From: a virus
Direction: 5' to 3' (one strand)
IMG/VR virus record: IMGVR_UViG_3300036790_000270
Location: 1 to 64,000 of that record
DNA: 64,000 nt
Part shown: piece after piece, positions 1 through 20,262 of the stretch
Layout: each line of letters starts with the position of its first letter
Numbering within the stretch: position 1 is the stretch's first letter
The notes under the pieces: generated by a model
The model's database searches: none
The model's input: the letters and a program-made list of their open reading frames with translations, nothing else
Told to the model about the DNA's origin: nothing
Position numbers and translations under genes: made by a program

Positions 1-250
1 GGGGTGCCGGGCGTCGCCTGAATCTCCCGCAGAACCCTCAGGTAAGTATCTGGCATGGTGTTATTCCTGTTCCTTCCTCTCAAACAGATCCCAGCGGATC
101 ACGTGGACACTGAGGATCTCGCCAGCCTCAACGTACGCGTAACGAAGTGCATCGAACATGGCCTGAATGGCTGTGTGCTCGGCATCAGCGGCACTGTCGG
201 CATCCGCGGCGAGCGACAGCGACATGGCGCGGTGGTCAGGCGGTCACTGG

Positions 251-544
251 TCAGCCCAGTTCCTTTCTTGCCTTGTACTCAGCAATGAGGTTGCCCGCCC
301 ACCGGTCGTTCGCCTCAGGCGAGTCATCGAACGGGATGAACCGGTCGTGCGGTCCCGGCTCGGCCGGGTTGTACTCGCTGCCCGGCTGCATGACGCCGCG
401 CCGGAACGCCTGCTCCCATTCGCGGTGCAGTACCGACTGCCGCCACGGGAGCTTGTTCTCTAGCCGTTCCATGTCCTCGGTGATCAGCTGGCAGTTACGG
501 AACGGCGCACGTCCCGATGACGGCCGGAACCAGGTGCGCCTCAT
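251..544 (-). CDS. hypothetical phage protein
   Basis: 3' part of ORF 251..916; the ATG at 544 overlaps the TGA stop of the upstream gene (ATGA coupling). Confidence 0.55.
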   Translation of the reverse strand: MRRTWFRPSSGRAPFRNCQLITEDMERLENKLPWRQSVLHREWEQAFRRGVMQPGSEYNPAEPGPHDRFIPFDDSPEANDRWAGNLIAEYKARKELG

Positions 545-882
545 GACGCGTCCGGCAGCATGGCGTACAGCCCGCGTGCGTTCTCCGGCAGGCTTTCCGG
601 TGCGTACTCGAACCTGGTGCCCAGCGGGCCGACGATGGCGACGCGGCCGAACCCGGCTACGTACACGTGCACGACGTCGGTACCCGGGTGAACGTGCAGC
701 CCGATGTTGCCCTCGCCGAGGGGGCTGTTGCTGTACGCGCCCGGCTGTGACGGGTCGACCGCCATGCTGCGAAGCTCGCTGTAGGTGAGCTGGTTCACGG
801 TTTGTCTCCTTGCTTTCGCGTCGGTGTTCAGGTTGTCGCGCTCTTCGGCGCTCATGCTGTCCGGGTAACTGCTCACGGTCAC
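541..882 (-). CDS. hypothetical phage protein
   Basis: 113 aa ORF, GAGGAG RBS, GTGA overlap with the upstream gene. Confidence 0.65.
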   Translation of the reverse strand: MTVSSYPDSMSAEERDNLNTDAKARRQTVNQLTYSELRSMAVDPSQPGAYSNSPLGEGNIGLHVHPGTDVVHVYVAGFGRVAIVGPLGTRFEYAPESLPENARGLYAMLPDAS

Positions 883-1361
883 TTCTCCTCTGCGTCATCG
901 CCGCCGACGTCGTCACGTTCCGCGTTGAACCCGGCTAGCCTGTCTGCTTCCTCGCAGTACAGCGGGCAGGTGCCGTCTGCGGTTCGGATGCGGTTGCTGT
1001 ACGGGCACCAGTCCCCTACGTCGTTGCGGTGTTCGGGTACCTGCTCCAGGCCGTCTAGGTCCTGTAGCGGGTCCTCGGCCTCGTACCCGTCCGGCCCGTA
1101 CAGGACGCCGGCGATCAGCGTGTCCTCGTCGTCGTTCAGGCTGGCGCGCATTTCCCCGACCGCCAGTTCCTCGGCTTCTTCAGCGGTAGCCGCGACAGCA
1201 GATGCTGCCCACGCGCCCTTTGCGCCGTCGATCACTTCGCTGCCGTCATCCAGGTAGTCGCTGCCGCCGTAGACGCTGTGCTCGCCTTCGACTACTCCCA
1301 CGCTGACCGGCTCGTCTTCCACCCAGAGCCCTATGACGGTCCACGCCTTGCTGTCGCTCAT
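879..1361 (-). CDS. acidic hypothetical protein
   Basis: ATG at 1361 preceded by AAGGAG; D/E-rich; C-terminal Cys pairs. Confidence 0.65.
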   Translation of the reverse strand: MSDSKAWTVIGLWVEDEPVSVGVVEGEHSVYGGSDYLDDGSEVIDGAKGAWAASAVAATAEEAEELAVGEMRASLNDDEDTLIAGVLYGPDGYEAEDPLQDLDGLEQVPEHRNDVGDWCPYSNRIRTADGTCPLYCEEADRLAGFNAERDDVGGDDAEEK

Positions 1362-1389
1362 GCTCGGTTCTCCTTGCGTGATTGTGCTA

Positions 1390-1405
1390 AGTGCCACGTG
1401 GCACT
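1390..1405. repeat. palindromic intergenic repeat AGTGCCACGTGGCACT, copy 1 of 10
   Basis: perfect 16-bp palindrome between the stop of 1417..2493 and the RBS of 879..1361. Confidence 0.95.
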
Positions 1406-1416
1406 AACTATTCCGG

Positions 1417-2493
1417 TTAGTCGACCTGCCCGCCGACCGACCAGGACCGGCCCTCGGGCACCGTGTTCTTCACGAGCTGGTACCAGGTCTTGCCGTCGCC
1501 CAGCTTGAGCGTGCGGTGCTCCGGACGGCGGCCGGCCTCGCGCGGGCGGTGCCGCATGAAACCACGGCCGTAGGTGACCCCGTACTCGTCCTTCCGTACT
1601 TCGGTCACCTGGTGGTTGACGCCGAGAACGTACGCGCTTGGCGTGCTCGGTGCGTTTAGCTCACGGGTCTGGCGGGTTGACCTGACGGCGAACACGTCCC
1701 CTTGCCGCAGTACCTCGCGGCTTCCGCTTTCCGCTTCGATGACCTGCGGCGGCTTCAGCGCCTCGCGGGCTTCCGCTACCGTCTGCGGCTTCGCGCCCTC
1801 TGGCAGCTGCGTGAGGAAGTACAGGCCGAAACCCGGCTCGTTCTCGTCGAACGCCGACAGGAAGTACGCTGACCCGCTGACGTACTGCCCGGCCGGGTGC
1901 ACCATCCGGTGCGTCAGGTCCATGTACGCGGGCTCGCGGTGCCAGTACTGGTAGTTCGCCGTGAACACGGTCTCGCCCAGGTGGTGGACCTTGATCTCGT
2001 ACGACCAGTCACCGCCGGGCAGCTGCTGCCAGTTCCGCGTGTAATGCGTGTCCCCGAGATCCCACTTACTGGGGGCTTCCGGGCGCGTACGCGTCTCCGA
2101 GGTGTACCGGTCCGGCAGCGTCTCGACGGCCGTGATGCTGTTGTGCTTGATGCCGGCCTGGTTCAGTGCGGAGAACGGGATGATCAGGAACGGCAGTCCC
2201 GTATCCCGGACCAGTGCCTGGACTGCAGTCTGCATACTGGTGGTGGACTGCCCCCAGCCGCGCCTGCCTGACCAGCGGTCACCGTTCAGCAGCCACCAGC
2301 CGCGCCTGCTGCTCCCCGACGGCATGATCACGGCGAGAGGGAAATGCCGCCCGTAACTGAATATGGCGTCATTGCCGTCTAGCGTGCCCTGGTAGATTCC
2401 TTGCAGGTGATAGTCGCTGAAGAAGTGCTGGTTGTCGGTGCCCGCGTCCCGGATGAACCTTTCGATGATCTCAGACATTCTCTTACCGGACAT
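1417..2493 (-). CDS. hypothetical phage protein (358 aa)
   Basis: long ORF with AAGGAG RBS; no family recognised. Confidence 0.75.
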   Translation of the reverse strand: MSGKRMSEIIERFIRDAGTDNQHFFSDYHLQGIYQGTLDGNDAIFSYGRHFPLAVIMPSGSSRRGWWLLNGDRWSGRRGWGQSTTSMQTAVQALVRDTGLPFLIIPFSALNQAGIKHNSITAVETLPDRYTSETRTRPEAPSKWDLGDTHYTRNWQQLPGGDWSYEIKVHHLGETVFTANYQYWHREPAYMDLTHRMVHPAGQYVSGSAYFLSAFDENEPGFGLYFLTQLPEGAKPQTVAEAREALKPPQVIEAESGSREVLRQGDVFAVRSTRQTRELNAPSTPSAYVLGVNHQVTEVRKDEYGVTYGRGFMRHRPREAGRRPEHRTLKLGDGKTWYQLVKNTVPEGRSWSVGGQVD

Positions 2494-2550
2494 GCGTGTT
2501 TCTCCTTGTCGTGTGTTTTGCTCAGTGCCACTAAGTCGTGCTGACTGTGG

Positions 2551-2694
2551 TTAGCTGTCGTTTCGCTTGCCAGTCAGTACCAGCAGCCACAGCGTGTCGA
2601 ACGCCTCGCTGACCTCGGGCGGGTTGTCCAGCTTCTCCGCCGGGTTGTCGGCGACGTAAGCTTCTAGCAGCCGTAGTGCGGCAGTTGGCGTCAT
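2551..2694 (-). CDS. small hypothetical protein (47 aa, MTPTAALRLL...)
   Basis: read manually; GAGGAG RBS lies within the end of the GMC gene. Confidence 0.5.
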   Translation of the reverse strand: MTPTAALRLLEAYVADNPAEKLDNPPEVSEAFDTLWLLVLTGKRNDS

Positions 2695-2695
2695 G

Positions 2696-4207
2696 TCAGT
2701 TCTCCTCTAGCAGGTGCTGACCGACGCGGAGCGCGTTGGCCATGATCGTCAGCGCGGGGTTGACCGCGCCGATACTCGGGAACACCGATGCGTCCGTGAC
2801 GTACAGGTTGTCCAGGTCGTGCGCCTTGCAGTGCACGTCAACAACCGATGTTGCCGGGTCGTTACCCATCCGCGCGGTGCCCGCCTGGTGCGCGACGCCG
2901 GCTAGCGGGATCTGCTTGCCCGCGAACCACGTGTGATTGAGCATCCCGGTGACGCGCATGATCTCGCGCAGCTTCATGTACAGCCCGCGAGCTTCTGATT
3001 CGTTTGTCGGCGTGTACGCCAGGTGCACGTTCCCCCCCGTGTCCAGGGTTACCCGGTTCTGCGCCAGGGGCAGGTCCTCGGTGGTCAGCCAGAAGTCCAC
3101 GCTGTGCGCGGCGATTTTCGCCAGCGGCCATTCGGGCGCCAGCATCGCCAGCCTGCTCTCACTGCGCATCGCCGCCGCGCACGACTTGCCCACCATCTGA
3201 ATCGATCCGAGCGAACCGTAGAAGTCATGCAGGGCCATGGTCTTCTGGAACACCGTGTGATTCGGCTTCCGGTCAACCGCGATCACCGCGCGGCTGTTGT
3301 GCATCATGAAGTTCCGGCCGACCTGACCCGAACTGTTGGCGATGCCTGACTGCAAGAGGATCTTGGCAGTGTTGACCGCGCCGGCCGCGAGCACCACGTT
3401 GTCAGCGCTGTACCAGTCATGCCCGCCAAGATGCACGCCGTCCTGTGCCTGCTGTTTCGCCCACACGCCCATGACTCGCCCGTTGCGGACGACGATCTCG
3501 TCAACCTCAGCGCCGGTCACCAGCGTGACGTTCGGGTAGTCGACGATCGGTTTGACCGCGATCACGTCAGCGTCAGCTTTGCCGTTGACCAGGCAGGGGT
3601 GCCCGTCGCAGGTACCGCACTTGACACACGGCAGTTCCGGCTTGCTCCCGCTGCCGCTCTCGTTCAGCAGGACGGCGGACGGCGCGTGGAACGGGTGGTA
3701 GCCCTCGGCGGCCAGCTGACCGGAGATCTCCGCGATGCGCGGTGCGTGCCGGACCGGCGGGTGCGGGTACTGCCGGGACCATGCTCCCTCGGTCGGGTCC
3801 TCGCCGTGTCGCCCGTGCACCTGGTACATCTGCTCCGCAGCCGAGTAGAACGGTTCCATGTCGCCGTAGCTGACCGGCCATGCGGGTGAAGTGCCGTCAA
3901 CGTGCCCGGTCACGTCGAAGTCTTCCGGTCGCAGCCGGAACAGCGCCGCGCCGTACAACTTGGTCGCGCCCCCCACGTAGTAGTGGCTCTGCGGCTGGAA
4001 CGGCTTCCCGTGCCGGTCGTACCAGGTATCCGGCGAGATGTACCGGCCGTCCTCGAACACGGCCTCCGGGTCCCAGTTCTGCGCCTCCTGCGGCAGGAAG
4101 CCGCCCCGTTCGAGGATCAGGATCTTCCGGCCGGCCCGCGCCAGCTTGCTCGCGATCGTGCCGCCGCCGGCGCCGCTGCCGATGATGATGAACTCGTAGT
4201 CACTCAT
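2696..4207 (-). CDS. GMC-family FAD oxidoreductase
   Basis: IIIGSGAGGG FAD-binding motif, VGGATKLYGAALFR, AHQAGTARMG, NLYVTDASVFPSIGAVNPALTIMANALRV C-terminal GMC signature. Confidence 0.92.
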   Translation of the reverse strand: MSDYEFIIIGSGAGGGTIASKLARAGRKILILERGGFLPQEAQNWDPEAVFEDGRYISPDTWYDRHGKPFQPQSHYYVGGATKLYGAALFRLRPEDFDVTGHVDGTSPAWPVSYGDMEPFYSAAEQMYQVHGRHGEDPTEGAWSRQYPHPPVRHAPRIAEISGQLAAEGYHPFHAPSAVLLNESGSGSKPELPCVKCGTCDGHPCLVNGKADADVIAVKPIVDYPNVTLVTGAEVDEIVVRNGRVMGVWAKQQAQDGVHLGGHDWYSADNVVLAAGAVNTAKILLQSGIANSSGQVGRNFMMHNSRAVIAVDRKPNHTVFQKTMALHDFYGSLGSIQMVGKSCAAAMRSESRLAMLAPEWPLAKIAAHSVDFWLTTEDLPLAQNRVTLDTGGNVHLAYTPTNESEARGLYMKLREIMRVTGMLNHTWFAGKQIPLAGVAHQAGTARMGNDPATSVVDVHCKAHDLDNLYVTDASVFPSIGAVNPALTIMANALRVGQHLLEEN

Positions 4208-4251
4208 GCTTTTCCTTTCTGGGTTCGTGCAGGTGAGCACGCGGAAAGCTA

Positions 4252-4267
4252 AGTGCCACGTGGCACC
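4252..4267. repeat. palindromic repeat copy 2 (ends CACC)
   Basis: lies within the 30-bp GCACGCGGAAAGCTAAGTGCCACGTGGCAC (4237-4266), which is identical to 7470-7499. Confidence 0.92.
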
Positions 4268-4282
4268 TAGCCTCCCGTCTGC

Positions 4283-4537
4283 CTAGCTGACCACCCATCC
4301 CTGCGGCGTCCACGTCAGCGCCGCTGACCAGTCGCCCCCGTGCACGCACGCCGAGATGCCCCCCTGCAACGTAAGCTCGTCCAGTGACCACTGATGGTCC
4401 CCGAACGGCAGCAGCCCCGGCATCGTGGTGAATGACAGGAATTCCGGGTAATGGCCGACCGCGAACGTGAACGACCTTTTCGTGTGCGGCGCGTCATGCC
4501 CTTTCAGCAGTGGCGCCACGTGCACCAGGGCGGTCAT
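4283..4537 (-). CDS. hypothetical protein
   Basis: 84 aa ORF with GGAGG RBS. Confidence 0.55.
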   Translation of the reverse strand: MTALVHVAPLLKGHDAPHTKRSFTFAVGHYPEFLSFTTMPGLLPFGDHQWSLDELTLQGGISACVHGGDWSAALTWTPQGWVVS

Positions 4538-4663
4538 TGCCCGTCCTCCTCTGCGTCATAGCCCACCGTCGAGTAGTAGGTCTCGTCTGACTCCAGGCAC
4601 ATCCGCAGGAACCTCCGCGCCGCGCCCGCGATTTTCTTCCACATGCTGATTCCCCTTCTCCTT

Positions 4664-4679
4664 AGTGCCACGTGGCACC
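4664..4679. repeat. palindromic repeat copy 3 (ends CACC)
   Basis: directly before the AAGGAG RBS of a 36-aa ORF (4534-4644). Confidence 0.92.
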
Positions 4680-4788
4680 AAGGAAATTTTTCGTTTGCAC
4701 CAGTTGTTTCCGGTTGCGCGATACGGGCCCGGCCACCAGAAGCACGAGCCCATATCCGAGACGCCGGGCCCGTATCGCGCGAGATTAG

Positions 4789-5088
4789 CTAGAAGCGGCC
4801 TACGTAGTCGAGGGCTTCCTGGCACCCGTTGACGCCTACTGTCGCGCCTACCACGACGGTGGAGTCAACCAGGTTAAGCACCGACATGAACGTCAGCACC
4901 GCGACCAGGCTGATCAGTGCTATGTGGATGTGCAGCCGGCGGCGGAAGCGGGCAGCCTCGTCTTCTTCCGCCAGCACCAGCCGGTGCACCTCGGCGCACA
5001 CCCGGTGATGCGCCTTGTCTCGTTCGGCTTTCAGCCGTTTCACGCACTTACGGCACGGGCTCGTGATCTCACGGATTGGAAAGCTCAT
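4789..5088 (-). CDS. putative membrane protein
   Basis: CxxC near the N-terminus; hydrophobic C-terminal segment. Confidence 0.5.
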   Translation of the reverse strand: MSFPIREITSPCRKCVKRLKAERDKAHHRVCAEVHRLVLAEEDEAARFRRRLHIHIALISLVAVLTFMSVLNLVDSTVVVGATVGVNGCQEALDYVGRF

Positions 5089-5464
5089 GCGCGGGGATCT
5101 CCTTGTAGGTGCCGGTGTCAACTTCGTAGGTAGCCACGATCGGGGCGTGCTCCGACTGGTTCATGTAGCCGAGCATGAAGTCCGTCGTGTGCTTCTTGCT
5201 CGCGCCGAACGCGAAGTAGTCATCCACGTACAGGAACCGCTGCGACGGGCTGACCGCGCCAATCGTGACGATCACTGAGACTGCGCAGTCGTGCCCGTCC
5301 GGGTACACGATCATCAGCGGCTTCCCGGTCAGCGTGCTAATGCTCGCGCCCAGCGAGATCGCGTGCGCGTCCCCCGCCACCACGATCGCGTCATAGTCGT
5401 CCTCGTGCTTGCACAGGTCCAGCATCGCGCCGTACACCGCGTCCTGAAGGGTATCTGCTGGCAT
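5069..5464 (-). CDS. phosphoribosyltransferase-fold protein
   Basis: FLYVDDYFAFGAS resembles the type I PRTase PRPP-binding loop (VDDxxxTGxT); AAGGAG RBS. Confidence 0.6.
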   Translation of the reverse strand: MPADTLQDAVYGAMLDLCKHEDDYDAIVVAGDAHAISLGASISTLTGKPLMIVYPDGHDCAVSVIVTIGAVSPSQRFLYVDDYFAFGASKKHTTDFMLGYMNQSEHAPIVATYEVDTGTYKEIPAHELSNP

Positions 5465-5500
5465 TGTCTTTCTCCTTCCGTCCGATCCGTTCGGACACGG

Positions 5501-5538
5501 AAAAGGCCCGCTTAATGCCACGTGGCACTAAGCGGGCC
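5501..5538 (-). terminator. palindromic repeat copy 4, extended into a long stem plus U-tract (intrinsic terminator-like)
   Basis: minus strand reads GGCCCGCTTAGTGCC-ACGT-GGCATTAAGCGGGCC-TTTT. Confidence 0.7.
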
Positions 5539-5874
5539 CCACCGTGAGCTAGCGGTCCCAGTATTTCGGAATTTCCGCCGGCCACAATGGGCCGATGTTC
5601 GTTCCAACGCGGGACAGGTTGTACATGCCGTATACCGGATTGTTTCCGTGCCATACCTCGGACGGCTCTATTTCCCAGCCGCGCGCTGCTGCCTGCTTGC
5701 GCATCTCCTCGAATTCTTTTCGCTGCATGTCAGTAGCCGTCCTCGATCGCGTGCAGCCGCGTGTAGAATCGCAGGTTAAGCTTCCGGAAACGGCACCGGC
5801 TGGTCAGCCCGCATAGCTGCGAGTAGACCTTGATCCTGAGTAGTTCGTTGACAGTCATGTGATTTCCTTTCTGC

Positions 5875-5892
5875 TAGTGCCACGTGGCACTA
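5875..5892. repeat. palindromic repeat copy 5 (18-bp perfect)
   Basis: TAGTGCCACGTGGCACTA between the TAA at 5900 and an AGAAAGG RBS. Confidence 0.95.
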
Positions 5893-5899
5893 AGAATGG

Positions 5900-6358
5900 T
5901 TAGCTGTTACAACTGCTGATGTTCGCCGTGACGGAATTAAGAACGCTGGTGACCGTGACTAGCTGCGCGGTGGCGCCGCTGACGTCGCCGGCTGTCATGT
6001 CTTCCCCGGCCGTTACCAGGCCCGTCATGGCCGTGACGTAGTCGGCACTTCCCGGCATCGGGTCAGCGAGCGCGGTAGCCGCGTCGGTGGTGAGTTGCGG
6101 GCCGTCCGTGAATTCAAGCGCTGGCAGGTTGCCCGCGTCCGCGTCCTGCCCCGACTGGGCAAGGTCGCTCTCGATAGCGGTTGTCTCGGTGAGGCCGCCA
6201 CCGGTTGCCCACGCCGCTATTAGTACGCAGGCCGGCACGGGGGAGGAAACCTTAACGGGAGTGACTACCTGACTTGCCCCCGTGCTGCCGCACGCGGTCA
6301 TGCTCACCGCGAGTGCTGCCGTCATCAGGATGACGCCGATAATGCCCTTGATATTCAT
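5900..6358 (-). CDS. putative lipoprotein
   Basis: signal peptide MNIKGIIGVILMTAALAVSMTA-C with a lipobox Cys. Confidence 0.7.
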   Translation of the reverse strand: MNIKGIIGVILMTAALAVSMTACGSTGASQVVTPVKVSSPVPACVLIAAWATGGGLTETTAIESDLAQSGQDADAGNLPALEFTDGPQLTTDAATALADPMPGSADYVTAMTGLVTAGEDMTAGDVSGATAQLVTVTSVLNSVTANISSCNS

Positions 6359-6377
6359 GCTGTTTTCCTTTCTGCTA

Positions 6378-6393
6378 AGTGCCACGCGGCACT
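6378..6393. repeat. palindromic repeat copy 6 (central variant ACGC)
   Basis: flanks nearly identical to those of copy 5. Confidence 0.92.
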
Positions 6394-6401
6394 AAGAACG
6401 G

Positions 6402-6629
6402 TTACTTGCTCGCCGGGAACGTCCACCACAGCACGCGCGTCCATGCACTGGCGAAGCGCGCGTCATTCCCGTCTAGGCGGGACGCGGAATACCGGCGCTC
6501 CCCATCGGGCATCAGAATGGCCGTGAAACTGTATCGCCGGCCCCTGATCAAGCGCGTCCACCGTTGGCTTGACCCGTTTCCCGGCGCGATCGGCGCAATT
6601 GTTGTGATCACGCGCTGCGGCTGCCTCAT
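6402..6629 (-). CDS. hypothetical protein
   Basis: 75 aa ORF, GGAGG RBS, ATGA overlap. Confidence 0.5.
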   Translation of the reverse strand: MRQPQRVITTIAPIAPGNGSSQRWTRLIRGRRYSFTAILMPDGERRYSASRLDGNDARFASAWTRVLWWTFPASK

Positions 6630-6910
6630 GCCGTTCCTCCTTGCCTGCTGATATCAGTTACGCTTGCCTCATGCCAGGCCGTTCCGTCCCAGACGCTGAT
6701 AACCACGTGCGGGATATCCCGGAACGGATCGCCCGTGGGACGCTTGTTGTCGCCGACGGCGAAGACACTGATAGTCCACTGGTCAGCTGTCGGCAGTGAT
6801 TTGTCATTGGTTACGTAATGGTCACCGAAACTTTTTCCGTAACTGTCGGCGAACGGTAGGTGCCGGATTCTCGGCTTGACGTCAGATTCCTTGTTCCACG
6901 GTCCGCGCAT
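6626..6910 (-). CDS. hypothetical protein
   Basis: ATG at 6910 after GGAGG. Confidence 0.6.
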   Translation of the reverse strand: MRGPWNKESDVKPRIRHLPFADSYGKSFGDHYVTNDKSLPTADQWTISVFAVGDNKRPTGDPFRDIPHVVISVWDGTAWHEASVTDISRQGGTA

Positions 6911-6924
6911 GTGATCCTCCGTTC

Positions 6925-6944
6925 TTAGTGCCACGTGGCACTAA
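6925..6944. repeat. palindromic repeat copy 7 (20-bp perfect)
   Basis: TTAGTGCCACGTGGCACTAA. Confidence 0.95.
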
Positions 6945-6948
6945 ACTA

Positions 6949-7200
6949 CTAATGGATTGGTGTTCCGTCCGGGTACTGGGCACTGTTGAAGAACTCGATG
7001 CCTTCGTCGAACCCGCTGTCATACGCCGAAACAGCGCTGTACGTATCGATCCACCCCGGCATCCTTTCCGCTTTGATTACCTCTAGTGGATGGCTATCGC
7101 AGCCATAGGCGCTAACGTACGATGCGTGCGACCACCCGCGCTCACGGCCGGTTATCCGCGCCGCATTCGCCAGCTTCAAAGAGACGTCTAACCGCCTCAC
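6949..7200 (-). CDS. hypothetical protein
   Basis: 83 aa ORF in the co-oriented run. Confidence 0.5.
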   Translation of the reverse strand: MRRLDVSLKLANAARITGRERGWSHASYVSAYGCDSHPLEVIKAERMPGWIDTYSAVSAYDSGFDEGIEFFNSAQYPDGTPIH

Positions 7201-7484
7201 TGCTATCGCTCACGCGGATACCCCCAGCTTCTCCAGTTCCGCTAGCAGTTCGGCTAGCTCTGTGGCATAGGCTGATTCCTGCTCCATCCTGCTTTCTACC
7301 GGGCCCGCGTCCATCACGGCCCCCCTTCCTGTTTCGGTTACCGCGTTACCTGCGCGCGTGGCCACGGGTCACAGTTGACAGGCTGTAACCCGGACCATGC
7401 ACGTAAGTCACACAACACTTTTGACGGATGTCAGACCATGATGACTGACCACCTTTCTCATGCCAGTTGGCACGCGGAAAGCTA

Positions 7485-7500
7485 AGTGCCACGTGGCACT
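7485..7500. repeat. palindromic repeat copy 8
   Basis: perfect 16-mer; shares the 30-bp flank with copy 2. Confidence 0.95.
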
Positions 7501-7527
7501 GACACTTAGCTAACCGTCTGCCAGCGG

Positions 7528-7779
7528 CTAGAACGGTGGTTCGAATGCGTGCACGGTGTTGTCGCCGGCGCGCTCTCGCCACGCTGTCACGTGATCCGTG
7601 GAATGCTTTCCAGTGCTTTCCGGCATTATCGCTACCGGCCAGAAACGGAATTCCGGGAACACGTCACTAGACAGCCTGGTGACGTCCGTCTGAATTGACA
7701 GCCGCATGCTTTCCGCTAGCCGCTTAAGGTCGGCGCCGGTCGTGTGATCGCCGGTGGTGACCTCAACTGTGAATATCAT
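7528..7779 (-). CDS. hypothetical protein
   Basis: 83 aa ORF, AGAAAG RBS. Confidence 0.55.
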   Translation of the reverse strand: MIFTVEVTTGDHTTGADLKRLAESMRLSIQTDVTRLSSDVFPEFRFWPVAIMPESTGKHSTDHVTAWRERAGDNTVHAFEPPF

Positions 7780-7816
7780 GCTGCTACTCTCTTTCTTGGT
7801 GGCCGATTACCGATGG

Positions 7817-8200
7817 TTAGCTGCAGTCCTCGCCGAAGTACTTGACGTCCTCAGTGACGTACTTGGCCGCCGCGCCGCTCCGCACGTCGCTGTACAGGCC
7901 GGCCGCGTCCTCACCCGTGTACTTCCACGGTGCGGATTCGCTCACGGTCATCATCGTGTTCAGGTTGGCCGTGGTCCGCTTGTGGTCCCACGTTGCGAAC
8001 GCCGCGCACGTTCGCTGCGCCGGCGTTGCCGTTGCGGTGGCCGCGTTCGCCACTGCCGCGTACGCGAGTCCGACTACCAGGAACGTAAGCAGGAAGATGC
8101 TGATTCCGATCGCGCGCTTGATCCCCGTGTCCGCCTTAGCCAACGGCGCGGTTTCCTCATGCCGGTCGGTGTGCGTGCCAGTCCCGTTCGTGTACCTCAT
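7817..8200 (-). CDS. putative membrane-anchored or secreted protein
   Basis: hydrophobic helix IGISIFLLTFLVVGLAYAAVA; ATGA overlap with the upstream gene. Confidence 0.6.
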   Translation of the reverse strand: MRYTNGTGTHTDRHEETAPLAKADTGIKRAIGISIFLLTFLVVGLAYAAVANAATATATPAQRTCAAFATWDHKRTTANLNTMMTVSESAPWKYTGEDAAGLYSDVRSGAAAKYVTEDVKYFGEDCS

Positions 8201-8364
8201 GACGATATGCACCCTTCTGGGGAACACCCCACGTAGATAGGTCCCACCCATCTGGCCACGTAGCCTGTGGGCAAGTCAAAGACTGGCCGGAAGTTGGTCG
8301 CGTCGAATTGGACGTGGTAGCGGCCGCACAGTTCCCGCAAGGCGGTTTCCTGCTGTGGTGTCAT
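8197..8364 (-). CDS. small hypothetical protein
   Basis: ATG after GGAAAGG RBS. Confidence 0.55.
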   Translation of the reverse strand: MTPQQETALRELCGRYHVQFDATNFRPVFDLPTGYVARWVGPIYVGCSPEGCISS

Positions 8365-8380
8365 GCTGATTTCCTTTCCT

Positions 8381-8396
8381 AGTGCCACGTGGCACT
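8381..8396. repeat. palindromic repeat copy 9
   Basis: perfect 16-mer between the stop at 8405 and an RBS. Confidence 0.95.
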
Positions 8397-8404
8397 TGAG
8401 GTAG

Positions 8405-8614
8405 TTACGGAACGAGGGTTACCTTGGTCAGTTTCGCGTACCTGATTTGCAAGGTCACGCCGGCCGGCTTGTCATCCTTGTTGATGTACCGCCCGTCCTC
8501 CTTGTGGCCGGCTTGCACGATCCTGAAATCGTTGCCGGCGTTCCAGTCGGCCAGTACGGCGGCCTTAGACCGGTAGTCGCGTCCGTACGCTGGGACCACG
8601 GTGAGATACTGCAT
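8405..8614 (-). CDS. small hypothetical phage protein
   Basis: 69 aa (PAYGRDYRSKAAVLADWNAGNDF), GAGG RBS. Confidence 0.65.
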   Translation of the reverse strand: MQYLTVVPAYGRDYRSKAAVLADWNAGNDFRIVQAGHKEDGRYINKDDKPAGVTLQIRYAKLTKVTLVP

Positions 8615-8626
8615 TGGGTGTTCCTC

Positions 8627-9118
8627 TCAGTAACGTGCGGTGGGCGCGAGGTTTCCGCGCTTGGAGATGCCCGACGGGTAGCTTTCCCCGCCGCCAGGGA
8701 TGTCGCCTGCGTCACGGGTAAGGTTGCCCCGCGCGCTTACCCACGCCCGGTAGCCGTTGTCGGTGCCAATGGCCCGTGCGTCACCAGCCCGGTAACCGGG
8801 CGCGCTTGGGTCAACGGCCACCTTGATGCCCGCGACGGGCGTGATGTGCGGCGCGCTCACCCGCGCGGTAGCCGGTATCGGGTTGCCCGCGAAATACGCG
8901 GCGTCTGGCCGGTAGTAGACCGATCCCCCGCCGTTCCTGCGGTTCGCGTTGGTGTTGCGCCGCCGTACGCGCCCGTTCCCGCCGCGTGCGGTTCCCGCGA
9001 GCACGTTCCCGCGATCTCCGCCCGCCGGCTCCGGGGTGTCACCACGCTTAGACCTAGCCGGCGCGGTGCCCGTGCGCAGCAGCGTGTCCAGCCGCGCGAT
9101 GCTTTCGGCTAGGCTCAC
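8627..9118 (-). CDS. basic Gly/Arg-rich hypothetical protein
   Basis: GTG start at 9118 within ORF 8627..9238. Confidence 0.5.
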   Translation of the reverse strand: MSLAESIARLDTLLRTGTAPARSKRGDTPEPAGGDRGNVLAGTARGGNGRVRRRNTNANRRNGGGSVYYRPDAAYFAGNPIPATARVSAPHITPVAGIKVAVDPSAPGYRAGDARAIGTDNGYRAWVSARGNLTRDAGDIPGGGESYPSGISKRGNLAPTARY

Positions 9119-9234
9119 GCGAGCGCCGCCGCAATCACCATGATCGTGCCCAGGACCGCGCACACGATCGCCAGCACGGCTTGCTCCGTTTCTGTCATGC
9201 GTTCCTCCACCTGTTTCGGGTCGTGCCCTGATAA

Positions 9235-9276
9235 GCACGCGGCGCGGCTAGGGTGTGTGCCCTAGCCGCACCGTGC
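9235..9276 (-). terminator. hairpin downstream of the HTH gene
   Basis: GCGGCTAGGG (9244-9253) pairs with CCCTAGCCGC (9260-9269). Confidence 0.5.
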
Positions 9277-9291
9277 ACCGGTCGGGACTGA

Positions 9292-10041
9292 TCATTCAGC
9301 GGTCAGTTGGGCGAGGTACAGTTCCGCCTTGGTGATCAGGGCGTGAAGTTCATCTTCCGACATCGCTGACAGCAACGTGTCTAGGTCGAATGCGGCGTCG
9401 GCGGAGGCCGTCCGTGGCGTGGTGGCCGTGGTGCCGGGCTCGCCGTCCGCACTGTCGCCGCTAGCGGATTCGCTTGCCGGCGTGTGCGCTGCTACGCGTG
9501 CCGGATTGGCGAGATTCAGTTCGGTGCGGTCCCGCTTGATCGTGCGCTCACCAGCGCCGGCCATCGCCATCACGTGCTCGATTGAGGTCTTGGGGTCGCG
9601 GGTGTACATCAGCGTCACTAGCAGCCGGCGCGCATCGTAGGGGAGCTGGAAGTTGTCCGGCCGGATGCCCATGAAGTCACGGAAGTACGCCTTCACTGTC
9701 ATGTCTTTGGCATCCCAGGGCGCGTACGGGTACAGCGCCGCGAATGCCTCTGCCACTTTCTTGGCATCCACGATCGCGGCCGTAACGAGCTTGCTGGCAA
9801 CCGCTTCAAGTGCCGCGCCTTTCTTTGGGTCCAGCTCTGGCGCGGACGCAGCCGGCGTCTTGGGCGCGACCGGCGTCTTGGGCGCGACCGGCGTCTTGGG
9901 CGCAGCCGGCGTCTTGGGCGCGACCGGCGTCTTGGCCGTGGCGGGCGGAACGATAGCCAGCCCGGTAGCGGCTTTGGCCGTGCGCTTGATTTGCGGCTTG
10001 GTGTCGGTGGTAACGAGCTTATGTTCTGCGGTTGCCGGCAT
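9292..10041 (-). CDS. putative HTH DNA-binding protein with an N-terminal APKTP repeat tail
   Basis: TSIEHVMAMAGAGERTIKRDRTEL resembles an HTH; (V/A)APKTP tandem repeats. Confidence 0.6.
   Translation of the reverse strand: MPATAEHKLVTTDTKPQIKRTAKAATGLAIVPPATAKTPVAPKTPAAPKTPVAPKTPVAPKTPAASAPELDPKKGAALEAVASKLVTAAIVDAKKVAEAFAALYPYAPWDAKDMTVKAYFRDFMGIRPDNFQLPYDARRLLVTLMYTRDPKTSIEHVMAMAGAGERTIKRDRTELNLANPARVAAHTPASESASGDSADGEPGTTATTPRTASADAAFDLDTLLSAMSEDELHALITKAELYLAQLTAE
9848..9935. repeat. 18-bp coding tandem repeat (about 5 units, CCGGCGTCTTGGGCGC(G/A)(A/G))
   Basis: read directly from the sequence. Confidence 0.9.
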
Positions 10042-10044
10042 GAT

Positions 10045-10113
10045 CGTGCCTTTCGCTGTCTGGATGCTAGGTGTGCCCTAGTTGCGCTGCATCTGGCGTT
10101 GCGCATGATCGGG
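10045..10113. repeat. 69-bp leader direct repeat, copy 1 (49 bp identical)
   Basis: 10065-10113 is identical to 10459-10507; includes the GAAAGG RBS on the minus strand. Confidence 0.95.
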
Positions 10114-10129
10114 CTGATTGGAAACTCGT

Positions 10130-10435
10130 TTACGCCAGTCGGTCCCGTCGGTTGATATCGGCTATTACTAGGTCATACAGGGTTTGCAGCGCGGAATCCT
10201 CTACCGGCCCGATAATCTCAGGGTCGATAAGGTCCCGCACTACGCGGTACGCCTCTCCGGGGGGTAGCGGAGCAGAGTCGTCGTCATTTAGTTCGGTGAT
10301 CGTGACGGTGCTGGGATCACGATAGTTTCGATCTACGTGAGCTTGCGCACTAGCCATGTTCTCCGCCACGATGACGGAAGCGAATTTCGTGTAACCACCG
10401 AACTGAGACGGGATTAGGAGTCGGTACTGTGCCAT
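10130..10435 (-). CDS. hypothetical protein
   Basis: ATG at 10435 after GAAAGG. Confidence 0.6.
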   Translation of the reverse strand: MAQYRLLIPSQFGGYTKFASVIVAENMASAQAHVDRNYRDPSTVTITELNDDDSAPLPPGEAYRVVRDLIDPEIIGPVEDSALQTLYDLVIADINRRDRLA

Positions 10436-10438
10436 GGG

Positions 10439-10507
10439 CGTGCCTTTCACTGCGTGGTTGCTAGGTGTGCCCTAGTTGCGCTGCATCTGGCGTTGCGCAT
10501 GATCGGG
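10439..10507. repeat. 69-bp leader direct repeat, copy 2
   Basis: see copy 1. Confidence 0.95.
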
Positions 10508-10665
10508 TTTCGCTGTGCTTAGCCATTCTTGATCCACGCGGTACCGTCGGTGGTCAACTGGTAGCCGGCCATTGAAATGCTGTGGAGGACCGACCCCGGA
10601 AGGACGTATCCGTTTCGGTACAGCCGGTTGAACAGTGCTTCCATGATTTCCTCACTGCCCTTGGT

Positions 10666-10683
10666 TAGTGCCACGTGGCACTA
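10666..10683. repeat. palindromic repeat copy 10 (18-bp perfect)
   Basis: upstream of a small ORF with ATG at 10644, the first gene of the leftward run. Confidence 0.95.
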
Positions 10684-11119
10684 GCGCACGATGCGCAATC
10701 TGATTGCTGCCCTGTTACCCGGTTAGCGACTGACGTGCTGTTACCAACCCCATCGTGTGCCCTAAGCAACTGCGATGCGCTCAATCGGTAATGCGTGGCG
10801 CTGTACCTGGTAGCTAGCCATCGTGCCGGTAGTAGTTCCGGCTTGCAGGTGACTGTCTGACATGCGGTCCGCGACGGCTTGTCTCAGCACTAGCTTTGGC
10901 GTGCTCACCTGCTGCATTGAACCGCGCCGCTAGCCGATGGCCAGGATTCGCGCGATTGTCTCTAGTTCCTCTGAGAACTAGCAAGATCAGCCCTTGCAAT
11001 CGAGCCGCCGGCTATGGAACGGGTGTCTGCCTCTGACCAGCTACCTTCACGCGGGTGACGCGCTACTCCGGTAGGTTCGGCTGCCTTGCCCTTGCGCGTT
11101 GGGCTTGAAAACAGCCCAA

Positions 11120-11230
11120 CGTGACCACATTCCCATGCAATCTGTTGATGTCAATACCTTGATACCCAACTTGTTTCTAATTCGTTATTGATCTGTTACT
11201 TAACCGGTTAACACTAATCTGTTCGGTGCG
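11120..11230 (-). promoter_or_regulatory. AT-rich control region with a leftward TTGACA -35 box
   Basis: TTGACA on the minus strand at 11154-11149; -10 box weak; lies at the strand-divergence point. Confidence 0.4.
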
Positions 11231-11537
11231 GCCGGGATTTGCCCACGGCTGACCTGGGCGGATGCACCACAACGGCCGAACGGGATGACCCGTGGGTGAA
11301 TGGCCGCGACAACCGTGTAAAGGCCTGTACGTGGCTGCTAGGGGCCTTTAAACGGGTGCTGGTGACTGGCCGGCCGTGTTTGTCGCGGATGTCGCGGCTG
11401 TCGCGGGTGGTTGCGATGCGATGTTACGCAACTGAGATCTTGGGTGTTGTCCTACTTGTCCACCTATGACCGGTATGCCCGGATGTTGACACGTTAGGAT
11501 GTGAACGTAGTTCAGTTCACATCAACCGGAGGTTCGC

Positions 11538-11690
11538 ATGCTGATCCACATCATCAACGCACTGATCACGATCGCGCCGTTCATCCTGCACACGATCGAG
11601 ATCACCAGGCTGCACGGTGTGCAGGTCGTGTGCCAGCTACAGACCGCGCACGGCCAGATCTACGCCAACGCCTGCAACACGATTGGCTGA
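11538..11690 (+). CDS. small hydrophobic protein (MLIHIINALITIAPF...)
   Basis: GGAGG RBS; TTGACA at 11486 upstream. Confidence 0.45.
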   Translation: MLIHIINALITIAPFILHTIEITRLHGVQVVCQLQTAHGQIYANACNTIG

Positions 11691-11889
11691 CCACGTGCTG
11701 ATCCGCTGCACACGACGTGATCTCACGGTGGACGAGGCGATCACCGTGCTTGCCGTCGACGGCTACCGTGGCGATGCCATCGTTCGCTACCTAGCCGACG
11801 CCCGTGCTGGATCTGCCTGGCCAGTCGGTCCGGTCGATCGTGTGACCTACCTGGCTACCGGCTACACGATCGCTTACAAGCAACGCTGA
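11683..11889 (+). CDS. hypothetical protein
   Basis: 3' part of ORF 11617..11889, overlapping the upstream stop. Confidence 0.4.
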   Translation: MADHVLIRCTRRDLTVDEAITVLAVDGYRGDAIVRYLADARAGSAWPVGPVDRVTYLATGYTIAYKQR

Positions 11890-12390
11890 TACTGCCTGGT
11901 TGACGGGCTCGGTGCCGTGCGGCATCGAGCTCGTTGGCATGCCCTGTTGGCGTGCTGGTGTGCTCATGGTGGCGTGCGGCTACGTGGTGTGCTACCTACT
12001 GCCCTGGCTGGTGTGTACATGATCCACTACATGACGTCCATCATGTGTACTACACAACACATCACATACCGCATGCCAACTACCGCATTCCGTATATCAT
12101 ATGACGTATGCGATGCGCTCGCGTACCGTACGCCAATTGGCCGACCATATATGATAATGTGAATTCGAATACATGTGTGCCGTAATTGTGTTCGATTTTT
12201 TGTCATTACCACCTACCGGACCTTCGGTTGACGGAATTCCCTCTCCGTGGCAGAAAACCCCTCTGCACAGCGGAAAACAGGAAAATTTTCGGCAAAAATC
12301 CCCCATACTTAGTTCAGTCACTGAACATTCTCTCTCTCGGAAAATCCGTAATCCGGAATAAAAGCCGACCCCCTTGGGCTGTCTTCCGGT

Positions 12391-12642
12391 ATGACCGCGA
12401 TCAGCGAAGCCGTAGTCAGGTGGCTAGACGTCGACGTCAGTGAGACGCCCCCCTGTGAAGGAGTACTGCTCCAGTTCGGCCGGGTGTGCGGTACTCCGTC
12501 GGCTGTCCGCGTGTACGTGATGTGCTTTTGTGGAGGGTCGTGCACGATCTTCTTGTGCGAGCGGGATTACCGGCAGCTGACGCTAGGGTTCGCTCGTTGC
12601 GGGCGCTGCCATCTCAAGATCGACAAGTGGACGGAGATCTAG
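12391..12642 (+). CDS. Cys-rich (zinc-binding) small protein
   Basis: several Cys pairs including CFC and CGRC. Confidence 0.55.
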   Translation: MTAISEAVVRWLDVDVSETPPCEGVLLQFGRVCGTPSAVRVYVMCFCGGSCTIFLCERDYRQLTLGFARCGRCHLKIDKWTEI

Positions 12643-12755
12643 TGAAGAAGACGGAACGAGGCATGGGGTGCTGCGGCTGCGGCCCCGGCGGCGGTGGCTG
12701 CACCTGCAGTCCAGGTTGCACGTGTACCTGCTCGTACTGCGATTGCCCGAAGTAG
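12642..12755 (+). CDS. metallothionein-like Cys-rich peptide (37 aa)
   Basis: GTG overlaps the upstream TAG; GGAG RBS; 10 Cys in CC/CxC motifs. Confidence 0.5.
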   Translation: MKKTERGMGCCGCGPGGGGCTCSPGCTCTCSYCDCPK

Positions 12756-12913
12756 GAATTCGTGCCTGATGATTCGTGCGCGCAGGGACACGCCAAGAGG
12801 ACGTTGTTCTATGAGGACCTGCCGGACGGCGGCCAGCGGCGGCACTGGATCTGCACTCGCTGCCTGATCTGTGCCAGTGACCCGCCGTCCAGTGCCAATT
12901 AAGAGGGAGGACC

Positions 12914-13228
12914 GTGGCGAGGACACCGAAGATCGTTCGGCGTAACGGCGGTTACTGCGTCTGCCCGCAGCCGGTAAAGACGACGAACATGCGGGAGAAT
13001 TTCTTCCGGGACGGAACCTGCAAGCGCGGGTACTGCTACTCAGCAAAGTGCTGGGACTGCTGCGGGGAGCTGTTCAGCATGGGGCCAATAACGTGCCAGT
13101 GCGAGCACCCGCGCTGGTGCCGGTACCCCGGGATGGAGCAGCCGGGCCACTGGGACCCAGCGAAGGACGAGTTCGTTCCGGCGCGTGCCGCGGTGAAGCC
13201 GAGTATCGCCAGGCGCCATCGTGCATGA
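12914..13228 (+). CDS. Cys-rich hypothetical protein
   Basis: GGAGG RBS; many Cys. Confidence 0.6.
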   Translation: MARTPKIVRRNGGYCVCPQPVKTTNMRENFFRDGTCKRGYCYSAKCWDCCGELFSMGPITCQCEHPRWCRYPGMEQPGHWDPAKDEFVPARAAVKPSIARRHRA

Positions 13229-13894: not shown

Positions 13895-14848
13895 CTAGAC
13901 CAGGCTCTTCAGCCACGCCAGGAGCTTCTCGACACCCTCGACGAGCTCGGCGACCGGGTTCTCGCTCGCTGGCGACACTGCGGGGGGCGCCGGAACGGGC
14001 GCGGGCACCGGCTTCGGCTGGGTAATCACCGCGGGGAACGCGTTTCCGGTGATTTCCTGGTAGTCCGCGGCGAGCTGCGCGATATTCATCCCGATGAGGA
14101 AGTTCTTGCTCATTAGGTGCTCCGGCCAGATGACCACCCAGCATTCCTCGACGGCGTTCTCCCAGAATGCGTCCGTGAAGCTGGTTTCCTGTGCCCAGGT
14201 GATGAACCGCTCGTCGCCGCCCAGCGGCCCGGCTCCAGCGGCCCCGTAGCCCGCGATCATGACGCTGTGGCCGCCGTCAACCGGGCTGGTCGGGCTCCAG
14301 TCCCAGGGCTGGCCGTCGCTGAACTCCGTCTGGTTGATGTCGAGCACGTTGATGCCCGTCCACACGCTGCCGAAGACGGCGATCGCCGCTTTTACTTCAG
14401 CGGGGTTCTTGTAGTCGACTGCGGCGAAGCAGAGCGCCTTCACGCCGTCGGGACCGCCGTTTGCGACGAGGTCTTCCAGGCCGGTCTGAATGTCCATGCC
14501 GTTGTCGTCGGGTGAGCCGGGGCCGGAGGCTGTTCCGCCTGCGGGGCTGAAGCCGGGGTTCTGCGTCTCGTAGAACGTCCAGACCTGGGACTGGCCGGGG
14601 TAAGTTCCCTGGGCAGTTAGCCAGGTGGTGACCAGGTACCGCATGTTGGCCCAGGTAACCGCGACGCAGTCGCCCGCCTGGTCATTGCCGAGCATCTGCC
14701 AGCTGCCGTCTAGCCGCGTGAGGTAGTCCTCAGCTGCGGGGACGAGGGGTTCCAGCTTGTAGGCGTCGTCGGTCAGGTAGTTCTTCAGCCGGAGAGCGCG
14801 TGCCCGCTTCGGGGAACGACGGCCGTACCTGCCGGGAGTGCGTGCCAT
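13895..14848 (-). CDS. papain-like cysteine peptidase (putative)
   Basis: GNDQAGDCVAV (catalytic Cys), GGHSVMIAGY (His), FITWA. Confidence 0.65.
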   Translation of the reverse strand: MARTPGRYGRRSPKRARALRLKNYLTDDAYKLEPLVPAAEDYLTRLDGSWQMLGNDQAGDCVAVTWANMRYLVTTWLTAQGTYPGQSQVWTFYETQNPGFSPAGGTASGPGSPDDNGMDIQTGLEDLVANGGPDGVKALCFAAVDYKNPAEVKAAIAVFGSVWTGINVLDINQTEFSDGQPWDWSPTSPVDGGHSVMIAGYGAAGAGPLGGDERFITWAQETSFTDAFWENAVEECWVVIWPEHLMSKNFLIGMNIAQLAADYQEITGNAFPAVITQPKPVPAPVPAPPAVSPASENPVAELVEGVEKLLAWLKSLV

Positions 14849-20055: not shown

Positions 20056-20142
20056 GGAGGGTTGGCTGAGAGGCAAGGCGCTGGACTGCTAATCCATGGT
20101 CACGGCTGACGCCGTGCGCAGGTTCGACCCCTGCACCCTCCG
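20056..20142 (+). tRNA. tRNA-Ser(GCT)
   Basis: GGAGGGT/ACCCTCC acceptor stem, CTGCTAA anticodon loop, long variable arm, GTTCGAC T-loop. Confidence 0.85.
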
Positions 20143-20143
20143 C

Positions 20144-20226: not shown

Positions 20227-20262
20227 CAGTGAGCTTGCCTATACCGCCCGCTTGACCCCCGG

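Follow-up and report, generated by a model that had tools for sequence, protein, structure and literature searches.

What does a viral genome gain from repeating one 16-bp palindrome at gene junction after gene junction? The question is raised by IMG/VR record IMGVR_UViG_3300036790_000270 (here G0), a soil-phage contig of 117,211 bp whose first 64 kb make up the window analyzed here, and in particular by the leftward array of mostly small genes at its beginning. An original prediction, made from the letters of the window alone, had noticed ten copies of the palindrome in this array and had proposed that they act as mRNA-processing sites, protein-binding sites, or joints between swappable gene cassettes. 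We found that the palindrome marks cassette boundaries, and the explanation that we prefer, which we would call an even bet, is that of a transcribed intercistronic stem-loop with a lineage-specific tip. All open reading frames (ORFs) referred to below are our own calls (longest ORFs, high third-position G+C, Shine-Dalgarno based) and not the output of a gene finder.

Scanning the window with AGTGCCACGTGGCACT at ≤2 mismatches returned exactly 10 matches, 6 of them exact and 4 with one mismatch, compared to a mean of 0.04 expected by chance from shuffled sequences (0 of 100 shuffles reached 10). The starts are those originally given (Table 1), all 10 copies lie outside called genes, as had been claimed, and no match occurs past 10682 in the window, which leaves the structural region of G0 free of copies. 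When the scan was extended to the full contig at ≤3 mismatches, a step that the original prediction had proposed, 13 copies were found, that is, the ten plus those at 108237, 111723 (centre AGCT), and 114318, all in the same minus-strand array. In the first-pass ORF calls, nearly every predicted gene at 0.5-10.7 kb and at 106.7-117.2 kb is read from the minus strand. The contig opens and closes with the same 10 bases (window 1-10; full record 117186-117211), which stand beside 20 consecutive G residues. The record carries the labels linear and 82% complete, but the genome is probably closed or terminally redundant and was split at this homopolymer. Given these identical ends and a gene order that is continuous across the junction in the relative G2 (see below), all copies belong to one leftward array of ~21 kb. 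The half-site reported at 2524 proved to be real as well. It is one of two identical remnants (the other at 116360-116368) that consist of the palindrome minus its 7 central bases, and the same loss between the palindrome's two GTG triplets in both of them suggests recurrent slippage within the palindrome. One further copy in G0 is degenerate. As originally described, the stem substitutions at 4252, 4664, and 5514 pair as G-U when read on the minus strand but are A-C mismatches on the plus strand, while the 6378 change lies within the central 4 nt; the copies at 108237 and 114318 behave like the one at 4252.

Table 1. The leftward array of G0 and the palindrome copies within the window (positions are those of the window unless stated otherwise).
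Feature	Position	Strand	Context
Leftward array, mostly small genes without known function	1..10700, continuing over the contig ends to ~106.7 kb of the full record	-	ORF calls
Copy, exact	1390..1405	-	11 nt past stop of gene 1417-2493; 28 nt ahead of ATG of gene 879-1361
Decayed copy (half-site)	2524..2532	-	Same junction in G2 has an intact copy, 107556
Type A module	4232..4287	-	G-U variant copy 4252-4267 tips a 16-bp sense helix, followed by a small second hairpin; upstream of GMC-oxidoreductase gene
Extended copy	4644..4699	-	G-U variant 4664-4679 tips a 13-bp sense helix; 3' arm of the helix overlaps the Shine-Dalgarno AAGGAG
Type B module	5486..5557	-	G-U variant 5514-5529 tips a 17-bp helix, followed by UUUU (terminator-like); kin modules in G2 at 112934 and 115522
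Copy, exact	5876..5891	-	8 nt past stop; 17 nt ahead of ATG
Copy, one change in central 4 nt	6378..6393	-	8 nt past stop; 19 nt ahead of ATG
Copy, exact	6927..6942	-	6 nt past stop; 16 nt ahead of ATG
Paired copies	7459..7500	-	Exact copy 7485-7500 with type A flank; degenerate copy 7459-7474 just downstream in sense direction
Copy, exact	8381..8396	-	Between genes 8405-8614 and 8197-8364; synteny breakpoint versus G2
First array copy	10667..10682	-	22 nt ahead of ATG of gene 10519-10644; ~450 nt leader upstream

Relatives of G0 were gathered by a terminase search of IMG/VR, which gave 24 loci. They include G1 (84 kb), G2 (L046; 122 kb, rated complete), the 14.8-kb contig L018, the loci L020 and L023, and a relative spread over several contigs of a 4.7-Mb metagenome-assembled genome (MAG) titled Acidobacteriaceae, here called the MAG phage. 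Terminase identity among G0, G1, and G2 is ~81-85%, the three being roughly equidistant. In each larger relative, the commonest 14-nt palindrome turned out to be a variant of the G0 element. G0 (117 kb) has 10 exact copies of GTGCCACGTGGCAC (AGTGCC-ACGT-GGCACT), G1 has 7 of GTGCCAGCTGGCAC (AGTGCC-AGCT-GGCACT), G2 has 15 of CTGCCACGTGGCAG (ACTGCC-ACGT-GGCAGT), and L018 has 2 of GGTGTCACGTGACACC (GGTGTC-ACGT-GACACC), while the MAG phage uses the G2-type stem. With one arm mismatch allowed and the centre left free, the total came to 74 sites (13 in G0, 8 in G1, 32 in G2, 16 in the MAG phage, 2 each in L018 and L023, and 1 in L020). The arm differences between lineages are all symmetric, at positions 1/16, 2/15, and 5/12, and the dyad is always kept. 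Two remoter relatives (54-56% terminase identity) had no palindrome variant, and scans of IMG/VR for the exact motifs found only single, apparently chance copies elsewhere, with no multi-copy case beyond the contigs found via the large terminase (TerL). Among the literature matches listed for the 12- and 14-nt cores, the 14-mer core was not met.

The comparison of G0 and G2 was informative at the level of single junctions, as a junction beside a shared gene has the variant typical of the genome in which it lies. For instance, the copy at 4252 in G0 corresponds to that at 109530 in G2, both upstream of the GMC oxidoreductase, and the copy at 8381 corresponds to that at 115522, both downstream of the same 69/77-aa gene. 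Where G0 has only the remnants 2524 and 116360, G2 has intact copies (107556 and 106434, respectively). Since matching junctions bear each genome's own variant, the copies evolve in concert.

For an analysis by strand, sites were oriented when a high-GC3 (third-position G+C) ORF ended beside them on one strand only, and the sites of the G0 array were set to minus. This gave 55 oriented sites of the 74, from 4 phages; the 19 ambiguous ones were excluded, and the L020 site, a near-duplicate of a G2 site, was additionally dropped from the alignments. In the oriented copies, the order in the sense direction is stop codon, palindrome, Shine-Dalgarno, and start codon. The claim that most copies closely follow a stop codon held in the window, where 8 of 10 begin 6-27 nt past the upstream stop, one begins 109 nt past it, and upstream of the first copy no gene was called; a start codon could be called for 9 of the 10, at a distance of 16-28 nt in 7 and 44-49 nt in 2. 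Over all of G0, 9 of 13 copies begin 6-27 nt past a stop, the start is 16-28 nt away in 8 and 44-49 nt away in 3, and each of the 13 is either intergenic by refined gene calls or precedes the start that is probably the true one. The first motif base of the copies in G2 and the MAG phage is usually part of the stop codon (cTGA-CTGCC); in the latter phage, motif base 2 is altered in 4 copies, forming TAA, and AAGGAG often abuts the hairpin. G1 and G2 also have copies in rightward modules, namely, past the terminase gene, before the capsid gene, and past the tRNA genes downstream of the tape measure gene, and G0 has none at the matching places. These tRNA-like sequences past the tape measure gene were identified by eye from the folded sequence, and each is then followed by a palindrome copy. 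Junctions free of copies mostly have overlapping stop/start pairs or unrelated strong hairpins.

Neither promoters nor terminators of the usual kind coincided with the copies. A scan of 13 kb confined to sigma-70-like promoters found 1 site, which is not at a copy. By eye, we noticed a TTGACA, a 16-nt spacer, and a TGn-GAATGT within an A+T-rich stretch at window positions 11127-11154 (minus strand), ~450 nt upstream of the first copy; this element, which the consensus scan did not report, may be the promoter of the array. The terminator scan of 1-13000 gave 7 terminator-like sites, none of which is a copy. As a class, the copies do not have the G+C-rich hairpin plus U-run of intrinsic terminators, as only the type B module has UUUU past its inner helix. 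A hairpin of 16 bp with a U-rich tail lies at window positions 23907-23950, between gene 23538-23876 and the capsid gene, and its conservation in G2 indicates that canonical terminators do exist in these phages and that they differ in look from the palindrome.

Evidence for an RNA helix on the transcribed strand comes from the copies that sit at the tips of longer helices (13-21 bp), which form well only on the transcribed strand. For all 4 extended G0 copies, the minimum free energy was lower in sense than in antisense (-35.3 versus -24.2, -21.6 versus -16.6, -46.1 versus -42.0, and -39.4 versus -29.6 kcal/mol). The type A module (5 members) forms a 21-pair helix in which 96.1% of the 103 cells are paired in sense versus 73.8% in antisense, with 24 G-U cells in sense versus 1 in antisense. 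G-U, G-C, and A-U interchange at several of its pairs, 5 pairs are changed on both sides, and none of 500 shuffles matched the observed percentage paired, the number of both-side-changed cells, or the covariation score. The type A module shows, on one strand, the compensatory and G-U changes by which a structured RNA is recognized. For the bare 16-mer, in turn, the changes between genomes are symmetric and fit DNA equally well. The type B module, with its 17-bp helix and UUUU, is kept between G0 and G2, each with its own core. At core pairs 1-2, the non-Watson-Crick cells in the sense orientation were 8 G-U, 1 A-C, and 4 other, and for the ten-pair structure, 84.3% of cells were paired in sense versus 77.4% in antisense.

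From these data, we infer that the sites are transcribed, that they affect the fate of the RNA, and that a factor recognizes them. The palindrome would be transcribed within long polycistronic mRNAs as a stem-loop of 6 bp with a 4-nt loop, often extended to 8-21 bp, located directly 3' of the stop codon of one cistron and 0-10 nt 5' of the Shine-Dalgarno of the next. In this position, it would provide the upstream cistron with a protective 3' hairpin, while the long forms might serve as a processing site (type A, an RNase III-like helix) or as a partial terminator (type B, helix plus U-run). By punctuating the operon, the stem-loops would uncouple neighbouring cassettes. The tip would be read by a putative lineage-specific factor, which we postulate because the 6-bp arms are identical genome-wide and change symmetrically between phages. 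As identical short sequences at cassette edges, the copies would also serve as points of cassette exchange. The RNase III sites of the early region of T7 are likewise hairpins between the cistrons of an operon, although without an identical shared tip. The type A modules, which reach ~21 bp with internal mismatches, resemble them, and for these helices the T7 analogy of the original prediction is plausible. It does not extend to the remaining copies, most of which have only 6-9 bp and are too short for RNase III.

Several observations weigh against a role as RNA. First, at every one of the 55 oriented sites the inner four arm pairs are the same and Watson-Crick, while the central 4 nt are free in G2; such a pattern is characteristic of a double-stranded DNA (dsDNA) site bound by a dimer, and an RNA that serves structure alone would seldom show it. 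Second, when 60-nt folds were compared at the 55 sites, sense was more stable in 32, antisense in 21, and 2 were ties (Wilcoxon P = 0.06), with control windows splitting 298 to 298, and in G0 alone the numbers were 6 versus 7. Furthermore, much of the G-U signal in the flanks comes from one 20-nt unit repeated across G2, which makes it dependent evidence, and at least 3 G2 copies carry this unit reversed. The G-U variants of the core are few and are partly copies of each other. One G2 copy (101302-101317) is seemingly in frame inside an ORF, translated as TAAWQS between the N- and C-terminal parts of the protein, and the G0 orthologue does not have it. No candidate for an RNA-binding protein emerged, and the 131 small G0 proteins match only 14 Pfam families, none of them DNA or RNA binding. 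Finally, the 14-nt core of G0 recurs unchanged beside bona fide parB genes of metagenome contigs. Together, these points qualify the original preference for a single-stranded hairpin over a dsDNA operator: the sense-only long helices and the type A covariation speak for it, the bias over the 55 sites is marginal, and recognition as duplex DNA stays in play as the less probable reading.

A bolder version of the stem-loop explanation, which we rate as a long shot, is that each lineage has a sequence-specific RNA-binding or RNA-cutting factor for its own stem-loop tip that cuts or insulates the early transcript at every cassette boundary. In function, such a putative factor could be likened to a Cas6/Csy4 endoribonuclease or to the lambda N-boxB pair. 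Were it to exist, each cistron would keep a protected hairpin at its 3' end and a short, clean leader at its 5' end, in a natural counterpart of the synthetic "RNA-processing insulators" that make the genes of an operon independent, and both the coevolution of hairpin and factor and the free swapping of cassettes would be explained. A search for the co-varying factor by its expected identity pattern (G0 = G1, unlike G2) in 42 orthologue trios gave no plausible nucleic-acid-binding protein. Cas_Csy4, the one Cas6 family searched, had no match in G0-G2 or the MAG. There was no match to a T7-type RNA_pol in G0-G2 either, but this search is uninformative, as its control was silent everywhere too. 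Rfam returned only a tRNA at the gathering threshold and two chance matches at E ≤ 10 in 1-11300.

The foremost rival, which we consider possible and well short of an even chance, is that the copies are duplex-DNA sites of a co-evolving dimeric protein, either of the centromere (ParB-KorB) type or another regulator, which would act on elongation, silencing, or genome organization in the manner of stoperators or the Cluster O repeats (see below); the RNA hairpins would then be by-products of the palindrome or later additions around it. ParB centromeres are built as 16-bp palindromes around a CG, their variants are symmetric and differ from family to family, the distal position tolerates change, and the canonical site is TGTTTCACGTGAAACA (PMC5450999, in the part dealing with these sites). 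The phage element is likewise a perfect 16-bp palindrome with a central CG, its arms are invariant within each genome while the centre varies, paired symmetric changes, located at arm position 1, 2, or 5 or in the centre, distinguish the relatives, and its outermost position is the most tolerant, as in the ParB sites described there. A joint change of 20 to 30 sites and their binding protein has been documented, for the stoperators (PMC6550527, in the part concerned with them). When metagenomes were scanned for pairs of the 12-nt core with a spacing of 40-70 nt, >119 loci (L072-L190) came up. In these >119 unrelated contigs, palindromes with the same TGCCACGTGGCA core form closely spaced pairs or triplets, and one class flanks parB genes. 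Among the matches listed, the commonest site classes were of the TGTGCCACGTGGCACA type and the GTTGCCACGTGGCAAC type, the latter in triplets with spacings of ~57 and 112 bp, and a ParB homologue was present in the short fetched flank at 13 of 119 loci. At locus L150 (193-1387), for instance, a gene whose product combines ParB_N, HTH_ParB, and ParB_C domains is surrounded by four of these sites. Low-GC contigs (L079, L090, and L138) hold 11-19 copies in arrays with a 31-64-bp period, with the same arms and a variable centre.

Against this rival, profile searches with ParB_N (E ≤ 0.1) drew a blank in G1 and in the complete G2, as did those with HTH_ParB (E ≤ 1) in all of G0-G2. G0 does encode a ParB_N-DUF5131 protein, but its match stays under the family threshold and neither G1 nor G2 has an orthologue of it; nor is a DNA-binding family represented among the Pfam matches of the small G0 proteins. 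The sites have the sequence form of parS, and a cognate ParB (ParB_N plus helix-turn-helix) encoded by the replicon was not found in G0-G2. The layout differs too, with one copy per gene junction instead of clusters by a par operon, in a fixed register with stop codon and Shine-Dalgarno and with some copies capping RNA helices of the sense strand. The parS-like pair of the candidate host MAG itself, GTTCCACGTGGAAC, is unlike the phage motif, and the G0 core occurs in only 1 of 301 genomes of the phylum of this MAG. Binding to duplex DNA would leave the stop/Shine-Dalgarno register, the placement past tRNA genes, and the sense-only helices with G-U covariation unexplained, and no copy overlaps a promoter-like site. 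As for other regulators, no integrase was found in G0-G2 by profile searches with Phage_integrase and Resolvase, which makes an immunity repressor unlikely.

We think it improbable that the copies are ordinary intercistronic hairpins, that is, weak terminators or stabilizers with no specific partner, alike only by recent cassette duplication. Many other gaps of the array do hold unrelated strong hairpins, which seem to be a general habit of the G0 genome, and tandem paralogous modules are present in G2. However, the G2 centres differ while the inner four arm pairs never change in the oriented copies, and invariant arms around a varying centre imply selection on the arm sequence beyond pairing alone. 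The concerted change at junctions common to different genomes is also at odds with unspecific hairpins, as are the scarcity of U-runs, lacking in most copies, and the fact that 0 of the 7 scanned terminator-like sites is a copy.

Equally doubtful in our judgment is that the palindrome is mainly mobile or recombinogenic, a cassette joint like integron attC, repetitive extragenic palindromic (REP) elements, or the promoter early stem-loop (PeSL) of T4, that spreads together with cassettes or from one to another, so that its uniformity would reflect copying and not recognition for gene expression. The best case is the copy at 8381. The two G0 genes that flank it (8405-8614 and 8197-8364) have G2 orthologues 2.5 kb apart, each beside a copy, and at the nucleotide level the two genomes cease to be homologous 11 and 26 nt away from the centre of the motif. 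Whole intergenic modules, 60-85 nt long, reappear non-syntenically in G0 and G2, a run of small genes in G2 is preceded, gene by gene, by near-identical motif-plus-Shine-Dalgarno modules, and the presence of a copy varies at junctions common to relatives. Only 13 of the 40 minus-strand ORF calls of the array have a match in G2, which indicates high gene turnover. In addition, G0-G2 have kept a 295-aa protein whose nearest Atlas clusters are partly Transposase_20 (the IS110 C-terminal domain; 10-28% of members), although Pfam gave nothing for it at E ≤ 1 and a DEDD domain was not seen either. Its gene (full record 94095-94982, minus strand; L064:10095-10982) matches phrog_4285 ("transposase"), and the protein is a possible nucleic-acid-binding candidate. 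An IS110 element has reportedly been seen to insert into REP palindromes.

Nevertheless, the shared junctions of G0 and G2 bear their own variants, for which simple co-transfer with cassettes is no explanation. There is no consistent target-site duplication, no match to a tyrosine or serine recombinase or to a Y1 transposase (Y1_Tnp) in G0-G2, and, apart from 8381, the ends of homology blocks are not clearly enriched at copies. The comparison with relatives that the original prediction had proposed, a search for breakpoints at the motif, gave this one clean case. What is seen at cassette edges is compatible with exchange at the copies but amounts to few cases, and the recombination joints that had been suggested are better seen as a consequence than as a function. 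Four further candidates were dropped: a host-wide REP element (within the 4.7-Mb MAG, only phage contigs contain the motif, and G0-G2 have no Y1_Tnp match, that is, no REP-associated tyrosine transposase [RAYT]), a host parS (in view of the differing MAG pair and the 1 in 301 genomes), and, both judged by eye and inconsistent across copies, a sigma-54-like reading of TGGCAC and a target-site duplication in the G2 flanks.

Among known systems, the closest described case that we found is the 17-bp dyad repeat of the Cluster O mycobacteriophages (the Corndog group), whose genome layout is strikingly similar and whose function is left unexplained in the section of PMC4351075 devoted to the repeat. 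According to that section, tens of identical dyad sites per genome are densest in a long leftward small-gene array, and these phages, too, have no integrase and possess a Ku-like protein, a protein with a ParB-like domain, glycosyltransferases in the structural region, and a displaced terminase. Their site differs in being 7+3+7 bp and of unrelated sequence (here, 6-bp arms plus 4 nt, or 8+8), and about one-third of the copies described there are inside ORFs, not tied to translation starts and not in indels. Only near-identical genomes are compared in that account, so lineage-specific variants are not known from it. The stoperators of Cluster A, as presented in the relevant part of PMC6550527, are alike in their number (20-30 sites genome-wide), in lying mostly off promoters, in having a phage-specific consensus, and in differing at syntenic sites. 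Here, too, there are many phage-specific sites away from promoters. Unlike our palindrome, however, stoperators are asymmetric 13-bp sites bound by the immunity repressor of a temperate phage, and neither repressor nor integrase was found in our phages. For this reason, stoperators do not fit as analogues. The start-associated sequences and their extended form (SAS/ESAS), which the original prediction had also named, probably do not fit either. The PeSL modules of T4-like phages are short conserved stem-loop motifs that flank variable genes in plastic regions and are points of exchange; they are composites of terminator and promoter (PMC4122927, in its description of the modules), while the conserved part here is a 16-nt palindrome with no promoter-like sequence. 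The T4 analogy held as far as a stem-loop at cassette edges is concerned and failed for the promoter, as no sigma-70-like promoter is found at copies.

Dense identical dyad repeats in large actinophage-like genomes were known before (Cluster O, 2015), with a function that the repeat section of PMC4351075 leaves unexplained. To these, the present data add symmetric variants that related phages provide as a natural series, also at corresponding gene junctions of G0 and G2, a fixed register with stop codon and Shine-Dalgarno, and versions inside covarying helices of the sense strand only. This combination makes a clean RNA-versus-DNA test with swapped stems possible. If the factor is directed to RNA, phages would have a new way of partitioning operons; if it is directed to DNA, parS-type palindromes would be linked to gene punctuation in phages without ParB. 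Under either reading, the element marks the edges of exchangeable accessory cassettes, which amount to ~1/5 of these genomes.

As regards the phage itself, G0 is a siphovirus with a large terminase, portal, protease, HK97-type capsid protein, and a tape measure of 1,836 aa. It also encodes a family A DNA polymerase, a DUF5906 primase-helicase-like protein, an SNF2 helicase, a Ku-like protein, and a methyltransferase. Megablast of 1-12000 against phages gave no match among cultured relatives, and the cultured-phage matches of the capsid and terminase proteins are all below 36% identity. Compared to cultured actinophages, the terminase reached 30-36% protein similarity; the Ku-like protein reached ~31%, and its best matches were listed as ~110-kb mycobacteriophages. 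Single small G0 proteins match the Pfam families Ion_trans_2 (ion channel), DUF397, Rv2632c-like, Rpf-type transglycosylase, and NUMOD4, several of which we take to be typical of Actinobacteria, in conflict with the Acidobacteriaceae label of the MAG in which a relative was found. The accessory genes, too, would point to an actinobacterial host.

Inside the accessory array, window positions 2696-4207 (minus strand) encode a GMC-family flavin adenine dinucleotide (FAD) oxidoreductase (GMC_oxred_N plus GMC_oxred_C), unusual for a phage, whose G2 copy has 68% identity; a scan for further arrays using this protein returned G2 alone. A lone leftward gene of 317 aa (13895-14848, minus strand) is kept in all relatives at 62-71% identity. 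Its position had suggested a regulator, a candidate that we rejected, as the only match was to a PHROG without assigned function; by eye, the protein has a Q...GDC plus GGH pattern that recalls a papain-like protease, with no Pfam match. Two neighbouring tRNA-Ser genes (anticodons GCT and AGA) are located at window positions 20056-20227, upstream of the portal gene.

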